From Escherichia coli (GTDB taxonomy: Bacteria > Pseudomonadota > Gammaproteobacteria > Enterobacterales > Enterobacteriaceae), in assembly GCF_003018235.1 (NCBI RefSeq), contig NZ_CP027437.1: DNA of 64,000 nt. One strand, written 5' to 3'. The translations under genes were made by a program, and so were the position numbers. The notes under the pieces are model-generated. The model saw only the letters and a list, made by a program, of their open reading frames with translations. It ran no database searches and was not told the origin of the DNA. Of this stretch, positions 4,181 through 47,003 are shown piece after piece. Numbering within the stretch: position 1 is the stretch's first letter; every line of letters starts with the position of its first letter.

Positions 4181-4299
4181 TGTAGTTTCCCTGTACTGAT
4201 AGGTGTTGAGTGCCATTGTAGTGCGATAAGGGTAAGTCATAAACCAGAATTATGTGAAGCTATGCGTTGCTGCCGCTAATCATTAGCGTTATAGTGAAT

Positions 4300-19240: not shown

Positions 19241-21382
19241 TCAAAATTCCATTTTCACCGTGAATTGCACTTCACGCGGATCGCCAATCTGATTCCCCAG
19301 ATTATTTGTGGCGATGGAAGAGGTGTAATACGTTTTATCAAACAGGTTTTTGACGTTTAATTGCAGTGTGACCGGATACTGCAATTTCATTTTGTATGCG
19401 GCGAAGGCATCGGCAACGAAATAGCCTGGCAGATAATAGTCAGCCCCATTGGTTGCCGAACGACGGCTTACGCCATGTCCACCACCGCCAAACGTCAGTG
19501 TGTTATTGCCTGGCATGTTATGAATGTCATAGGTCAGGAATAGCGAACCGGTATGACGAGGAACATTCGGCAATGGTTTCCCTGCATAATCAGGATCCTC
19601 CAGAACCTTAGCATCGGTATAGCCGTAGCTGGCAATGATATTAATGTTTTCAGTTAATGCTCCCGCAAGGTCGACTTCTACCCCTCTTGAACGAACGCGG
19701 CCTGCCGTTTTGGCGATGGTTTCATCACCAATACTTTCGGTATACAACACGTTACGTTTATGGATATCAAACAGCGCAATATCTGCGGTTATACCATCGA
19801 ACAGCTCGAATTTTGCCCCGACTTCGTAAGCATTAGATGATTCCGGTGGAAGATCGCCAATGTAGCTGGCAATTGACGATTGCGGCATAAATGTTTGCGA
19901 ATAATTAGCAAATAAGGATACCGATGGCGTCAGTTTGTAGACTAACCCCAGTTTGGGCGTCCATTGTTCATCGCGGCTGTCAGTATTGACATTAAAAGGA
20001 CGGCCTTTACCCGCATACTGCGTGTAATACTGATAGCGGATCCCGGCGACGGCAATCCAGTTATCGGTCAGATAGAGTGCGTCCTGTGCATACGCTGAGT
20101 AGCTCTCCTGTTTGATCGTCTGATCACTGTCCGACGCCGAAACCGTTGTACATTTGCTGGTATTACCATAAACAGGGTTGTAGATATTGAAATCTTTAGC
20201 TTTTTTACAGCGAATCATATCTGTGCGCAGAAGATCATAATATTCATATGACACCCCACCCAGAATCTCATTATAGAACCCAGCAATATCAACATTCCCT
20301 TGCAGATCCGCACGAGTAGAATGCATACGCTGGGTAGATCCCTGAGTTGCATCAACACGCCGTGTCAGCGTTCCTGTCGTTGCATCATACGCGGTAACGC
20401 GAGCCTGATTGTCGCTGTATTTATCCTGGCTGTAGCTGTAATCAAAGCGCGCTGTCCACTGGCTATTGAGATGATATTCTGCGTTGAGTTGCGCCAGATC
20501 GGACTGACCATCTGTAATATTAAACGGTTCGTCAAAACGTATTTTTCGATCAACGTTTACGGGCTGTTTCGTCGTAAGGTCGAAAATCGTTCCACGATCG
20601 AACGGAGTTTTATAGTCCCGATGGGAATAGAGCATAGTTACTGTTGCATTATCACCAAACCAGGTGAGTGACGGGGCAATAAATGTACTGCGCTCTTTAC
20701 CGAAGTTTCGCCAGTAATCTTCATCCTGCACTTCCCCCGTCAGGCGGTATGCCAGCTGAGTGCCTTCAATGGGACCTGTGATATCAAGTTGCCCAGTGCC
20801 TCCGCCAAAACTGGAGGAGGTGGCTGAAACCGAACCATGGAATGTTTTTTCCGGGCGCTTGGTCACGACGTTAATCAGTCCACCAGGATCGAGAATGCCA
20901 TACAGCGTGGAGGCCGGACCTTTTAGCACTTCCACACGTTCTGTGGCGGCGTTGAAACTGCGAGGAAGTACAGTTCGCAGGCCGTTGGTCATGATGGAGC
21001 CATCCCGGTTAGCACCAAACCCACGACGTACAAAGGCGTCCTGAGTTCCGCCTAATGTATTGGTCTGTACCACGTTACTGACGTTATAAAGCGCTTCATC
21101 CAGCGTCGTCGCATTCTGATTTTCCAGAACCTGATCGCTAACCGTATTGACCACCTGCGGGATATCCAACATCGGCATATCGGTTAATGTCGCCGTGGAA
21201 GTGCTCAGAGGTTGATAACCATCGGTCGCCTCAGTTGCGGTATTTGCATCCGCTGTAACAGTGATTGTTTCGCCATCTTTGGTCGTTGCAGTGTCGGTTG
21301 CATGAATCATTGGTGCTGCAAAGAGCAGTGAAAAGAGCGCCCGACCTTTGATTCCTGAGAATGAAGGTGTGAACTTAGCCAT
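19241..21382 (-). CDS. TonB-dependent outer membrane receptor (siderophore/metal-chelate type)
   Basis: 713-aa ORF; signal peptide; TonB-box-like ETITVTA; plug plus beta-barrel; C-terminal aromatic residue (…KMEF). Confidence 0.9.
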   Translation of the reverse strand: MAKFTPSFSGIKGRALFSLLFAAPMIHATDTATTKDGETITVTADANTATEATDGYQPLSTSTATLTDMPMLDIPQVVNTVSDQVLENQNATTLDEALYNVSNVVQTNTLGGTQDAFVRRGFGANRDGSIMTNGLRTVLPRSFNAATERVEVLKGPASTLYGILDPGGLINVVTKRPEKTFHGSVSATSSSFGGGTGQLDITGPIEGTQLAYRLTGEVQDEDYWRNFGKERSTFIAPSLTWFGDNATVTMLYSHRDYKTPFDRGTIFDLTTKQPVNVDRKIRFDEPFNITDGQSDLAQLNAEYHLNSQWTARFDYSYSQDKYSDNQARVTAYDATTGTLTRRVDATQGSTQRMHSTRADLQGNVDIAGFYNEILGGVSYEYYDLLRTDMIRCKKAKDFNIYNPVYGNTSKCTTVSASDSDQTIKQESYSAYAQDALYLTDNWIAVAGIRYQYYTQYAGKGRPFNVNTDSRDEQWTPKLGLVYKLTPSVSLFANYSQTFMPQSSIASYIGDLPPESSNAYEVGAKFELFDGITADIALFDIHKRNVLYTESIGDETIAKTAGRVRSRGVEVDLAGALTENINIIASYGYTDAKVLEDPDYAGKPLPNVPRHTGSLFLTYDIHNMPGNNTLTFGGGGHGVSRRSATNGADYYLPGYFVADAFAAYKMKLQYPVTLQLNVKNLFDKTYYTSSIATNNLGNQIGDPREVQFTVKMEF

Positions 21383-21481
21383 TTAGTCTGTTATCCCAAA
21401 AACTCACGGATTGTCGTGAGTGAAAATTGTTTCTTGTTGCTCACTAAGCACTATCCGTTTGTTATTTCACCATCGGATATG

Positions 21482-21500
21482 TAATTGAGAATCATTCAAC
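21482..21500. promoter_or_regulatory. Fur-box-like site in the divergent receptor/ABC promoter region
   Basis: TAATTGAGAATCATTCAAC; core TGAGAATCATT matches Fur consensus TGATAATCATT at 10 of 11 positions. Confidence 0.4.
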
Positions 21501-21755
21501 CATGCGGTGATGTAGTAGTAAATGAGAAATAACAAAAAATTGCTACATGTGTTTTTATGAGAGGTTAATGCAATTCAATTGATGGTAATTTATTAATATT
21601 TAATGGTTTTATTTTTATCTTTAAAAATATTTCACCTGTTATTTACCTTGTTTTTGTATGGCTTTTAACTTCTTGACTACTACATTTTGTGGCGTCAAAC
21701 TCTCAAAGGAGAATGAGTTTTATTTTTGTTTGTCTTTGATTAAGTTGGCGTACAC

Positions 21756-22565
21756 GTGGCACATAACGCAAAAGGGCAGGGGCTGATCCTCGACAATGTT
21801 TCTGCCGGGTATCACACGAAAATCATTGTTGATGGCGTTTCTTTCTCCGTTCCCACAGAAAAAATGACCGTTCTGGTTGGGGCAAACGGCTGTGGAAAGT
21901 CGACGTTGCTCAGCACCATTGCACGTATCTTGCAACCTATGGGCGGCTCGATATTGCTGGATGGTAAAGCGATTCACGAGCAACCAACGAAAGCGTTATC
22001 CCGTAGACTTGGGATCTTGCCGCAGTCGCCATTATTGCCGGAGGGCTTAACCGTTTATGAACTGGTGTCGCGTGGGCGTTTTCCCTGGCAGAATTTCATT
22101 CGTCAATGGAGCGACGCCGACGAGCAGGCGGTAGAAGAGGCCCTGAAATTAACCGGTACGCAGGAGTTTGCACATTTACCTGTTGAAAAACTTTCTGGTG
22201 GGCAGCGCCAGCGTTGCTGGATTGCGATGGTGTTGGCGCAAAAGACGCCTTATATCCTGCTGGATGAACCCACAACCTGGCTTGATTTACGTTATCAGGT
22301 TGAAATTCTTGAGTTATTACATGATTTAACGCGTCATCACGGGCGTACAGTCGTCGTGGTGTTGCATGATCTGAATTTTGCCGTCAATTATGGTGATACG
22401 TTGATATTTTTACGCCAGGGGAAAGTGGTGCGTGTGTTGAATGAGGGGGAGCATTGCACGCCTGAGCTGGTAAAAGCTGTCTTTGACGTTGATGTTCACG
22501 CATCAATAAATCCTCTGACGGGAAAGCCGTTCTTCATGCCGTTTCGTGGTGTAGAAAAAGTATGA
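21756..22565 (+). CDS. ABC transporter ATP-binding protein (FepC/FecE-like)
   Basis: Walker A GANGCGKST, signature LSGGQRQR, Walker B ILLDEPT, H-loop; GTG start. Confidence 0.85.
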   Translation: MAHNAKGQGLILDNVSAGYHTKIIVDGVSFSVPTEKMTVLVGANGCGKSTLLSTIARILQPMGGSILLDGKAIHEQPTKALSRRLGILPQSPLLPEGLTVYELVSRGRFPWQNFIRQWSDADEQAVEEALKLTGTQEFAHLPVEKLSGGQRQRCWIAMVLAQKTPYILLDEPTTWLDLRYQVEILELLHDLTRHHGRTVVVVLHDLNFAVNYGDTLIFLRQGKVVRVLNEGEHCTPELVKAVFDVDVHASINPLTGKPFFMPFRGVEKV

Positions 22566-46978: not shown

Positions 46979-47003
46979 GCAAATAGTAATGAGAACGACT
47001 ATC
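46979..47003. promoter_or_regulatory. Fur-box-like site upstream of exbB
   Basis: GCAAATAGTAATGAGAACGACTATC resembles the Fur consensus. Confidence 0.35.

Follow-up and report, generated by a model that had tools for sequence, protein, structure and literature searches.

Back-to-back operons for iron uptake are well known from the enterobactin cluster, where fepA-fes, fepD-entS and fepB-entC are divergently arranged and their Fur boxes overlap the core promoters. To our knowledge, these ent/fep promoters have no locus-specific second repressor like the FitR of fit. Leader peptides (tnaC, ermCL and the leaders of amino-acid operons) are a familiar class of short ORFs at the head of operons; their SD spacing is functional, the peptide or its key codons are conserved, and the position of the ribosome is read out downstream by a structure or a Rho/terminator element. 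The fit iron-transport locus, in which fitA was identified as a fit gene, contains a spacer that acts as a bidirectional promoter under repression by Fur and by FitR, an RpiR-type regulator encoded in the locus itself (PMC2593036). Published experiments have demonstrated that both proteins repress, that FitR binds the spacer and that Fur gives two ChIP peaks there. Loss of fur raised fitA expression 23-fold, iron depletion brought fitB-lacZ activity from 168 to 525 units, and FitR repressed in both directions and shifted the whole 347-bp spacer fragment in EMSA (PMC2593036). ChIP-seq of Fur in CFT073 placed one summit at 3607979 and another at 3607777, each marked as having a Fur motif (PMC7157518). 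The values of 5.7 for c3774 and 7.0 for c3775 in the first ratio column of that study's supplement are taken here to be fur mutant versus wild type (PMC7157518). Expression from both fit promoters is thus described as Fur- and iron-dependent (PMC2593036; PMC7157518). The 2008 paper states explicitly that the exact Fur and FitR sites were unmapped (PMC2593036), and the 2020 paper gives peak summits and motif presence only (PMC7157518). Neither paper maps Fur or FitR sites, and the positions given below are predictions.

The DNA analyzed here was a 64-kb stretch of the E. coli genome (the window), in which a 373-bp spacer, positions 21383-21755, separates a TonB-dependent receptor gene from an ABC transporter ATPase gene, as the earlier note on this sequence had described. 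The receptor gene is fitA, divergent from the fitB ATPase gene, and on the fitB side the locus continues with the fitC and fitD permeases, the fitE binding protein and fitR. With six genes, parE as its neighbor and a 373-bp spacer, it is identical to the published fit locus. It is an accessory island next to parE, and in RefSeq a 99.9% identical locus is flanked by parE and ygiN. The spacer between c3774 and c3775 of CFT073 is also 373 bp, is collinear with that of the window and has both Fur boxes (Table 1) in identical form, and the two ChIP-seq summits map to 21493 and 21695 of the window. Among 5426 complete E. coli genomes, 1870 carried the fit locus. A plasmid search found the fit spacer on no true plasmid, the one match being a chromosome-sized record; only the conserved block was matched, in megaplasmids of Pantoea and Rahnella. 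The spacer can be regarded with good confidence as the bidirectional control region of the known fit locus, with the arrangement of Fur boxes, promoters and FitR sites described below as its best explanation. The locus, its bidirectional promoter and its repression by Fur and FitR are already published and are largely ordinary biology.

Table 1 Coordinates of genes and predicted control elements of the fitA-fitB region in the window.
Feature	Position	Strand	Remarks
fitA, TonB-dependent siderophore receptor	19241..21382	-	c3775 in CFT073; NCBIfam TIGR01783, 1.4e-111
Hairpin 2, ACUCACG-N6-CGUGAGU then U-run	21402..21421	-	just upstream of the fitA ribosome-binding region
Hairpin 1, near 5' end of predicted fitA mRNA	21453..21478	-	arms 21474-21478 / 21453-21457
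Fur box 1, GTAATTGAGAATCATTCAA	21481..21499		12/19 to consensus; 6.85 bits; overlaps predicted fitA -10/+1
Predicted PfitA extended -10, TGgTTGAAT	21494..21502	-	sigma-70 matrix; predicted start near 21487
Invariant motif ATGTAGTAGTAAAT, candidate FitR operator	21510..21523		98% conserved; holds predicted PfitA -35 and TGTAGT-type half-sites
Third half-site (G)CTACA, possible FitR partner site	21542..21547		putative; TGTAGT-N25-CTACA with 21511-21516
Invariant motif TTGACTACTACATT, candidate FitR operator	21673..21686		94% conserved; predicted PfitB -35 TTGACT (21673-21678) and ACTACTACA half-sites
Predicted PfitB -10, CAAACT	21696..21701	+	17 bp from TTGACT; predicted start ~21707-21709
SD-like AAAGGAGA (21705-21712) with mini-ORF ATG...TGA, proposed as 8-codon uORF	21705..21739	+	judged a by-product of box 2 and the T-rich leader
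Fur box 2, GAGAATGAGTTTTATTTTT	21709..21727		13.86 bits; contains the mini-ORF ATG (21713-21715)
fitB, ABC transporter ATPase, GTG start	21756..22565	+	c3774 in CFT073; NCBIfam FecE/FepC/FhuC-type

The spacer has a G+C content of 30.8%, compared with 50.7% for the window, and a comparative footprint was made from 59 unique orthologous spacers of about 15 genera. Conservation averaged 54% over these sequences, and four blocks were nearly invariant (96, 98, 94 and 92%). These correspond to the block at 21480-21502 (96%), the two candidate FitR motifs and Fur box 2. Several repeats were set aside: the 11-nt perfect inverted repeat I2 (21458-68 / 21526-36) and the direct repeat D3 (TATTTCACC, two copies 165 bp apart) are not conserved across genera, and repeats D1 and D2 are T-rich; all four were taken to be chance or lineage-specific. 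A search of positions 21000-22100 against Rfam at a permissive threshold returned only a plant microRNA family (E = 0.08), which was considered spurious.

A simple consensus scan with a 9-of-12 threshold yielded no promoter, and a terminator scan gave a single chance-level terminator, located inside fitA. Both proposed promoters have weak hexamers (8/12 each), and because their sigma-70 matrix scores were no better than those of shuffled sequence, the promoter calls rest on conservation. On the plus strand the best sigma-70 candidate was TTGACT-17-CAAACT, predicted as PfitB. Its -10 element varies to CATGAT in Klebsiella and to CAAAAT in Kosakonia, and keeps the A at position 2, the T at position 6 and the 17-bp spacing in all genera examined. 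On the minus strand the second-best candidate, TTTACT-17-TGnTTGAAT, is predicted as PfitA, with its -35 hexamer TTTACT at 21522-21517; the TG and TTGAAT are invariant across genera, and position 2 of the -10 is not the usual A. The top-scoring minus-strand candidate, TTGAGA-16-TGTAGT, reading leftward from 21706, was rejected because its spacing is not kept in Klebsiella, and TTGAGA (21485-90) with TGTAGT as a rightward -10 was rejected for its 20-bp spacer. A covarying hairpin in the fitA leader begins at 21478, so that fitA transcription must start upstream of it; the hairpin lies 9 nt downstream of the predicted start.

The predicted -35 elements of both promoters lie within invariant motifs, and 21510-21522 and 21673-21685 form a 13-nt inverted repeat. 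Exact copies of ACTACTACAT occur only twice in the 64 kb, in these two motifs. FitR is, by family assignment, an HTH plus SIS protein of the RpiR/MurR family, and the RpiR-family protein RccR binds TGTAGT/ACTACA half-sites (PMC5489143). Half-sites of this type were found as TGTAGTAGT at 21511-19, ACTACTACA at 21676-84 and CTACA at 21543-47. The third of these is moderately conserved in fitA-fitB spacers; in 15 receptor-fitR spacers CTACA is invariant and CTACAT nearly so. The TGTAGT/ACTACA motif was present in all 74 analyzable loci that encode a FitR homolog. Compared with the RccR/HexR operators of Pseudomonas (TGTAGT/ACTACA, TTGT-N7-8-ACAA), the fit motifs carry exactly the half-site of RccR, but in another arrangement. 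RccR sites are pseudo-palindromes of 15 or 28 bp with linkers of 3 or 16 bp, whereas the fit half-sites overlap in tandem and pair either across a 25-bp linker (21517-21541) or as arms about 156 bp apart over the -35 boxes. The regulons also differ, since FitR controls iron uptake and regulators of the RccR/HexR type control carbon metabolism. By analogy with RccR and from their conservation, the two invariant motifs TGTAGTAGT and ACTACTACA, which face each other in inverted orientation over the predicted -35 boxes, probably serve as FitR operators. If TGTAGTAGT is such an operator, a change of TGTAGTAGT to TCTACTACT would abolish the FitR shift.

The earlier note had pointed to a Fur-like site, TAATTGAGAATCATTCAAC at 21482-21500, as a sign of iron repression, and the published expression data and the CFT073 ChIP-seq support repression of this divergent region by Fur. 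The sequence is present, and its best register against the 19-bp consensus is 21481-21499 (box 1). Counting matches to the consensus was undiscriminating in this AT-rich spacer, where several sites match at 11-13 of 19 positions, and a Fur matrix was therefore built from 13 Fur-regulated promoter regions of K-12. This 19-bp 9-1-9 matrix is small, consensus-seeded and symmetrized; its training sites score 9.9-20.1 bits, or 5.1-18.6 bits when each is left out in turn. The matrix scan suggested by the earlier note gave a divided result: its own site reached only 6.85 bits, and the high-scoring box lay instead at the start of its proposed uORF (box 2).

The score of box 1 falls near the bottom of the leave-one-out range, was reached by 27% of dinucleotide shuffles of the spacer and is not significant alone. 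The site is nevertheless a genuine, deeply conserved element, also kept in the receptor-fitR loci of Pantoea, Rahnella and Erwinia. One ChIP-seq summit (21493) lies 3 bp from its center and 225 bp from that of box 2, and with a height of 2720 it is the larger of the two. The low score, the overlap with the predicted extended -10 of PfitA, an initial TGTAAT that could be read as part of a FitR site, and an invariance more rigid than that of box 2 would all fit a sequence kept as the core promoter of fitA, as a FitR site or as both, with Fur acting through box 2 and weak neighboring sites. We regard this as distinctly unlikely in view of the separate summit over box 1, the Fur half-site TGAGAAT-C-ATT that it contains, and the direction of its changes in other genera, where substitutions shift toward the consensus (GATAATCATT, 8.3-12.4 bits; the Rahnella version scores 12.4 bits). 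In addition, fitA is Fur-repressed (PMC2593036). Box 1 is thus retained as a Fur box, and the overlapping promoter or FitR may account for as much of its complete invariance as Fur does. If Fur binds box 1, mutation of TGAGAATCATT would abolish that binding.

Box 2 had the top Fur-matrix score in the 64-kb window, inside the range of the training sites, and its score was reached by 0.36% of spacer shuffles (P = 0.0036). It was the top-scoring site in 57 of 60 orthologous spacers. Conservation in the 59-spacer footprint dropped to 45% directly after the box, and the single variable site within it, 21718 (T/A), is the center of the 19-bp palindrome. In Tatumella the equivalent is GATAATGATATTGATTATT (16/19) and in Shimwellia GATAATGATATTTATTACT (15/19), and both start with GATAATGAT. 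The second ChIP-seq summit (21695) lies 23 bp from the box 2 center. The ChIP-seq data show occupancy by Fur in vivo, at a summit resolution that does not prove the exact 19-mers. Both boxes overlap the -10/+1 regions of promoters that are themselves predictions. The conserved block also starts some bases before the 19-mer, with CAAA(A/G) at 21704-08 kept as well, as would be expected if 21704-21727 were conserved neither for Fur nor for coding and served as a discriminator/initial-transcribed region, a site for another regulator or a 5' RNA element of the fitB mRNA. We consider this very improbable, because the cross-genus variation of box 2 runs along the Fur consensus, its score is the best in the window, the second Fur peak falls on the fitB side of the spacer, and the block matched no Rfam family and formed no stable structure. 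A Fur box is the preferred reading of the 19-mer, and its score is comparable to those of the Fur-matrix sites in the enterobactin cluster (12.9-17.4 bits at fepA-fes, fepD-entS and fepB-entC). The fit spacer differs from those regions in having two well-separated Fur sites, 228 bp from center to center, in a long AT-rich spacer.

The same segment had been read earlier as a strong ribosome-binding site and an eight-codon ORF, possibly a leader peptide or upstream translational element. AAAGGAGA and the ORF encoding MSFIFVCL are present, with the start codon at 21713-21715, rather than 21711, and the TGA at 21737-21739. The ribosome-binding site is strong in that it forms a duplex of -8.7 kcal/mol with the anti-SD, but its GGAG (21708-21711) is only 1 nt from the ATG. 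Efficient initiation in E. coli has an SD-to-start spacing of about 5-9 nt, and no ATG, GTG or TTG lies 5-9 nt from this GGAG. The duplex energy also holds only for the GGAG allele and is about -2.9 kcal/mol elsewhere. In the other orthologous spacers, position 21708 is A in 97% and G in 3%. The GGAG allele is the majority form among fit-positive E. coli (1479 of 1870, 79%), is missing in at least 375 of these 1870 genomes, and was found outside Escherichia in one Enterobacter MAG only. It comes from one A-to-G substitution at or beside the predicted transcription start, which is largely restricted to Escherichia.

The ORF itself is not conserved. In orthologs it measures between 4 and at least 100 codons, its peptides include MSFIFVCL, MRFILI, MRFI and MIFIFIC, and it is in frame with fitB in one species. 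Codons 1-5 were equally conserved at all three positions, and the change at 21718, a third position, exchanges Ser and Arg. All 60 cross-genus sequences share the ATG, and it is replaced by ATA in 11 E. coli genomes, a natural variant in which box 2 still scores 11.96 bits. The likeness to leader peptides such as tnaC and ermCL is that a short ORF precedes the operon's first gene; functional SD spacing, a conserved peptide and a downstream readout element were not found. With a 1-nt SD gap, a variable ORF, no codon pattern and conservation that coincides with the 19-bp box, the leader-peptide or uORF interpretation was unsupported.

The start of fitB, which the earlier note had considered uncertain, is securely the GTG at 21756. 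An in-frame TAA (21741-43) lies upstream, homology to FecE/FepC-type proteins starts by residue 10 (NCBIfam matches begin at residues 5-10), the context of the GTG is kept in Enterobacter and Lelliottia, and RefSeq uses the same start. Ahead of the GTG lies a weak SD-like TAAGTTGG (21741-21748). The U-rich fitB leader folded into less structure than shuffled sequence (z = +1.43), and a regulatory RNA structure there was rejected.

These features bear on whether the mini-ORF is really translated in GGAG strains, with synthesis of MSFIFVCL setting FitB output through re-initiation or unfolding, as a leader peptide or by coupling. Besides the constant ATG and the frequency of GGAG in E. coli, such a role would suit the position of its stop codon, 16 nt before the SD-poor GTG, and the state of fitB in the E. 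coli/Enterobacter group, where the gene has a GTG and only a weak SD and where, in several members, the ORF overlaps the GTG or stops 1-16 nt short of it. However, the predicted fitB transcription start leaves just 4-6 nt before the AUG, and the unstructured leader offers nothing for a ribosome to unfold. In the Klebsiella, Kosakonia and Kluyvera loci examined, fitB has a strong SD (GCAGGAG or GGAGAG) upstream of an ATG, and the mini-ORF stops well before that SD or passes the ATG out of frame. Together with the 1-nt gap, the distribution of GGAG and ATA, the lack of conservation in length, frame and peptide, and conservation that tracks the Fur box rather than codons, this leaves only a slim chance that the mini-ORF has such a function. 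The mini-ORF is most likely Fur box 2 that happens to contain an ATG, and not a conserved coding element; its ATG is the one built into the Fur consensus GATAATGAT. Judging from the sequence, some translation of the mini-ORF may occur in strains with the GGAG allele. It is highly improbable that the A-to-G change made an SD beside the Fur-box ATG such that, after release of Fur, the eight-codon ORF boosts FitB by re-initiation; if true, one DNA element would be both a Fur operator and, as RNA, a translational enhancer.

On the other side of the spacer, the predicted fitA leader is more structured (fold z = -2.86). Hairpin 1 had compensatory double changes at all 5 consensus pairs in an RNAalifold alignment of 26 orthologs, with AU replaced by GC in 7 sequences and UA by CG in 5. 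Hairpin 2 has a GC-rich counterpart of different sequence in nearly all orthologs, and in CFT073 the pair 21406/21417 is altered in a compensatory manner. This hairpin may act in attenuation, in stability or as an Hfq/sRNA element.

Taken together, we propose that two divergent sigma-70 promoters, about 165 bp apart, would each have a -35 element embedded in the invariant TT(G/T)ACTACTACAT motif, the probable FitR operator, followed by a Fur operator. Box 1 would cover the PfitA -10 and start, and box 2 the PfitB start and the early transcribed stretch. When iron is present, Fur-Fe2+ on both boxes would block both promoters, and FitR would add an independent, weaker repression. Translation of fitB begins at GTG 21756, behind a short U-rich leader without structure. 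Here we infer the exact boxes, promoter hexamers, start sites and FitR operator, and the analysis thereby adds base-level predictions to questions left open by the 2008 authors: two Fur boxes, a probable FitR operator and likely core promoters. It also suggests caution, because the Fur consensus GATAATGAT includes an ATG and Fur boxes near transcription starts can mimic short uORFs. As fitA is used as a marker of ExPEC/AIEC (PMC9409007), a correct map of its control region would have modest practical value.

Family scans and an ORF map placed yqiA-parE upstream of the fit genes in the window, and the plus-strand genes that diverge from the siderophore receptor encode an ABC ATPase, a pair of FecCD-type permeases, a substrate-binding protein and a regulator of the RpiR/MurR type. 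With the receptor gene, they make up the fit iron-transport locus known from the literature (fitA, fitBCDE and fitR); in RefSeq the island is flanked by parE and ygiN. Searched against 5426 complete E. coli genomes, a 1-kb query around the fitA-fitB spacer found matches of 95-100% identity in 1870. A mechanical ORF list started fitD at ATG 23542 and fitE at TTG 24539; the RefSeq starts lie later, at about 23554 and 24602. Ouyang and Isaacson described a bidirectional promoter in the spacer, iron-dependent fit expression, fitA expression induced 23-fold by mutation of fur, binding of the spacer by FitR in EMSA, and an independent repression of 2- to 5-fold by FitR, the precise Fur and FitR sites not being known to them (PMC2593036). 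Banerjee et al. reported two ChIP-seq summits within the spacer (3607979 and 3607777), both flagged with a Fur motif (PMC7157518). The region is an ordinary divergent promoter under Fur regulation that has been characterised before.

The spacer is 373 bp long, with a G+C content of 30.8% vs 50.7% for the window. A FitR-homolog alignment was scanned over one genome per species and yielded 80 loci. The fitA-spacer-fitB arrangement was found in 59 of these (Escherichia, Enterobacter, Lelliottia, Klebsiella, Raoultella, Kluyvera, Kosakonia, Phytobacter, Pluralibacter, Yokenella, Shimwellia, Tatumella and others). In 15 of the 80, which belong to Pantoea, Rahnella, Erwinia and Tatumella, fitR lies directly opposite a distant receptor that shares 35-38% identity with FitA. 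Alignment of 59 unique spacers gave a mean conservation of 54%, falling to 39% in the AT-rich centre, and revealed four near-invariant blocks, of which blocks 1 and 2 were also kept upstream of the unrelated receptors of the 15 receptor-fitR loci.

Features of the fit divergent control region (window coordinates)
Feature	Coordinates	Strand	Sequence	Conservation or basis	Remark
fitA, TonB-dependent siderophore receptor	19241-21382	minus		ORF map and family scans	
fitB, ABC ATPase	21756-22565	plus		ORF map and family scans	GTG start
Block 1	21480-21502		TGTAATTGAGAATCATTCAAnCA	96%	Fur-like site of the earlier note (box 1)
Block 2	21510-21523		ATGTAGTAGTAAAT	98%	
Block 3	21673-21686		TTGACTACTACATT	94%	
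Block 4	21709-21727		GAGAATGAGnTTTATTTTT	92%	uORF start of the earlier note (box 2)
Predicted PfitA	-35 21522-21517; -10 21502-21494	minus	TTTACT, 17 bp, TGgTTGAAT	second-best candidate	
Predicted PfitB	-35 21673-21678; -10 21696-21701	plus	TTGACT, 17 bp, CAAACT	best sigma-70 candidate	

A symmetrised 19-bp Fur matrix was built from 13 K-12 promoter regions under Fur control, each contributing its best site (consensus GATAATGATAATCATTATC; training-site scores 9.9-20.1 bits, leave-one-out 5.1-18.6). The top match in the spacer was box 2 at 13.86 bits, the highest score anywhere in the 64-kb window; when the spacer was dinucleotide-shuffled, only 0.36% of the shuffles scored as high. Box 2 ranked first in 57 of 60 orthologous spacers and lies nearer the consensus in distant genera, such as Tatumella (GATAATGATATTGATTATT, 16/19) and Shimwellia (GATAATGATATTTATTACT, 15/19). 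The Fur-like 19-mer of the earlier note was confirmed at 21482-21500 and ranked second in the spacer, although its 6.85 bits, reached by 27% of shuffles, are not significant alone; the Rahnella version, GCAATTGATAATCATTCCA, scored 12.4 bits. The CFT073 spacer, also 373 bp, is collinear with that of the window; the two align without indels, agree at 348 positions and have the same sequence in both boxes. Its Fur ChIP summits fall at window position 21493, 3 bp off the centre of box 1, and at 21695, 23 bp off that of box 2. We conclude that both boxes are Fur operators, and that the earlier note, right in its Fur call, had picked the weaker-scoring box and taken the stronger for a uORF. Elsewhere in the window, AGTAATGAGAACGACTATC at 46985-47003 (9.88 bits) is identical to the matrix-picked site of the K-12 exbB promoter, which suggests that the window includes the exbBD promoter; further matches of at least 10 bits lie at 4275, 12191, 28956, 35424, 52452 and 52932.

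The 8-codon ORF MSFIFVCL is present at 21713-21739, its ATG being at 21713 and not at 21711 as first given, and AAAGGAGA stands at 21705-21712. Its proposed role as a leader peptide or translational element did not hold up. A single base separates GGAG (21708-21711) from the ATG, and the range 5-9 nt beyond GGAG contains no other start codon. G21708, which makes GGAG, is shared with 3% of the other orthologous spacers; those others read AAAAGAG, which weakens the predicted anti-SD duplex from -8.7 to about -2.9 kcal/mol. Were the predicted PfitB correct, the mRNA 5' end would fall 4-6 nt before the AUG, placing the SD at or before the 5' end. The fitB leader (z = +1.43) has no fold that a ribosome could remodel. 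ORF length varies by species (4, 6, 7, 8, 11, 12, 16, 27-59 or at least 100 codons), and codons 1-5 are equally conserved at all three codon positions. Their only variable base, 21718 (T/A, Ser to Arg), is the centre of the 19-bp palindrome, where by symmetry the swap is neutral. Conservation falls to 45% directly past 21727, and the ATG is built into the Fur consensus (GATAATGAT). In strains with the GGAG allele the mini-ORF might still be translated, a reading that we consider very improbable and that the comparison across orthologs does not support. We regard the model as a whole as likely: a divergent promoter regulated by Fur, the supposed uORF being most probably a Fur box.

Haplotypes over 21690-21760 were compared in the 1870 E. 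coli genomes. The window allele was found in 1479, AAAAGAG alleles, including that of O157:H7, in 66 + 298, and AAAAGAG with ATG changed to ATA in 11. The corresponding polymorphisms are 21708 G/A (GGAG vs AGAG) and 21715 G/A (ATG vs ATA); 21732 G/T exchanges Cys for Phe in the mini-ORF, and the O157:H7 allele lacks the SD. In Enterobacter genomosp. O (L078) the Fur-box ATG shares the reading frame of fitB, with no stop between, and could add a 16-residue N-terminal extension to FitB, a case that illustrates how free the ORF frame is.

The start of fitB, which had been left in doubt, was settled at GTG 21756. The frame is closed upstream by an in-frame TAA (21741-21743), family scans pick up homology to FecE/FepC/FhuC-type ATPases by residue 5-10, the GTG context CACGTGGC is kept in Enterobacter and Lelliottia, and RefSeq uses the same GTG. 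The frame offers no ATG before codon 37, which stands just ahead of the Walker A motif. Among the loci inspected, those of Klebsiella, Raoultella, Kosakonia, Kluyvera and Phytobacter (L004, L018, L023, L038, L050, L079 and others) carry a longer, GC-rich fitB leader ending in a strong SD (GCAGGAG; GGAGAG in Kluyvera) before an ATG start. The E. coli/Enterobacter/Lelliottia lineage is without this segment (compared at 21728-21755) and starts fitB from GTG with only the weak SD-like TAAGTTGG.

The predicted promoters share one layout, TT(G/T)ACT-ACTACAT, 17 bp, -10, Fur box. Their sigma-70 scores were no higher than those of shuffled sequence and a built-in promoter scan found no promoter, so their placement rests on conservation and symmetry. 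The TG and -10 hexamer of PfitA are invariant, as is the -35 of PfitB, whose -10 varies (CATGAT, CAAAAT) with A2, T6 and the 17-bp spacing kept. A minus-strand stem-loop at 21453-21478 (arms 21474-21478 and 21453-21457), near the predicted 5' end of fitA mRNA, showed compensatory double changes at 5 of 5 consensus pairs among 26 orthologs. The 5' edge of this stem lies 9 nt downstream of the predicted fitA start, so its covariation points to a transcribed region and independently supports that start; the stem-loop may be a 5' stabilising hairpin. Another minus-strand hairpin (21402-21421), with a GC-rich stem of 7 bp and a U-run behind it, directly precedes the fitA ribosome-binding region and looks like a terminator/attenuator or an Hfq-binding module. 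Nearly all orthologs have an equivalent hairpin of different sequence, and in CFT073 the pair 21406/21417 has changed in a compensatory way from A-T to G-C. Between the two hairpins, a conserved, apparently single-stranded stretch (21433-21442, minus strand) reads GAGCAACAAG here and GGGCAAUGA in most other genera, and is a possible small-RNA target.

Blocks 2 and 3 form a 13-nt inverted repeat and hold the only two exact copies of ACTACTACAT in the 64 kb. They overlie both predicted -35 boxes and reach well past a -35 hexamer. All 74 analysable loci encoding a FitR homolog carry the core motif TGTAGTAGT with at most one mismatch. A third half-site, CTACA(T) at 21543-21547 (element 21542-21547), is invariant in the receptor-fitR loci and yields TGTAGT-N25-CTACA. 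RccR, a Pseudomonas RpiR-family regulator, binds TGTAGT/ACTACA half-sites joined by linkers of 3 or 16 bp (PMC5489143). The half-site of blocks 2 and 3 is identical, but the linkers in the fit spacer are not those of RccR, so the likeness is one of functional analogy, not membership. Together, blocks 2 and 3 and the 21542-21547 element are probably the FitR operator, and FitR sitting over both -35 boxes would account for the published repression in both directions.

The 15 receptor-fitR spacers (L002, L003, L035, L044, L047, L053, L055, L057-L061, L064, L065 and L070) have no fitBCDE between receptor and fitR, and carry a near-identical cassette of Fur box 1, TGTAGTAGTAAA, about 25 bp and CTACAT. 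The control cassette goes along with fitR and is more conserved than the receptor under its control.
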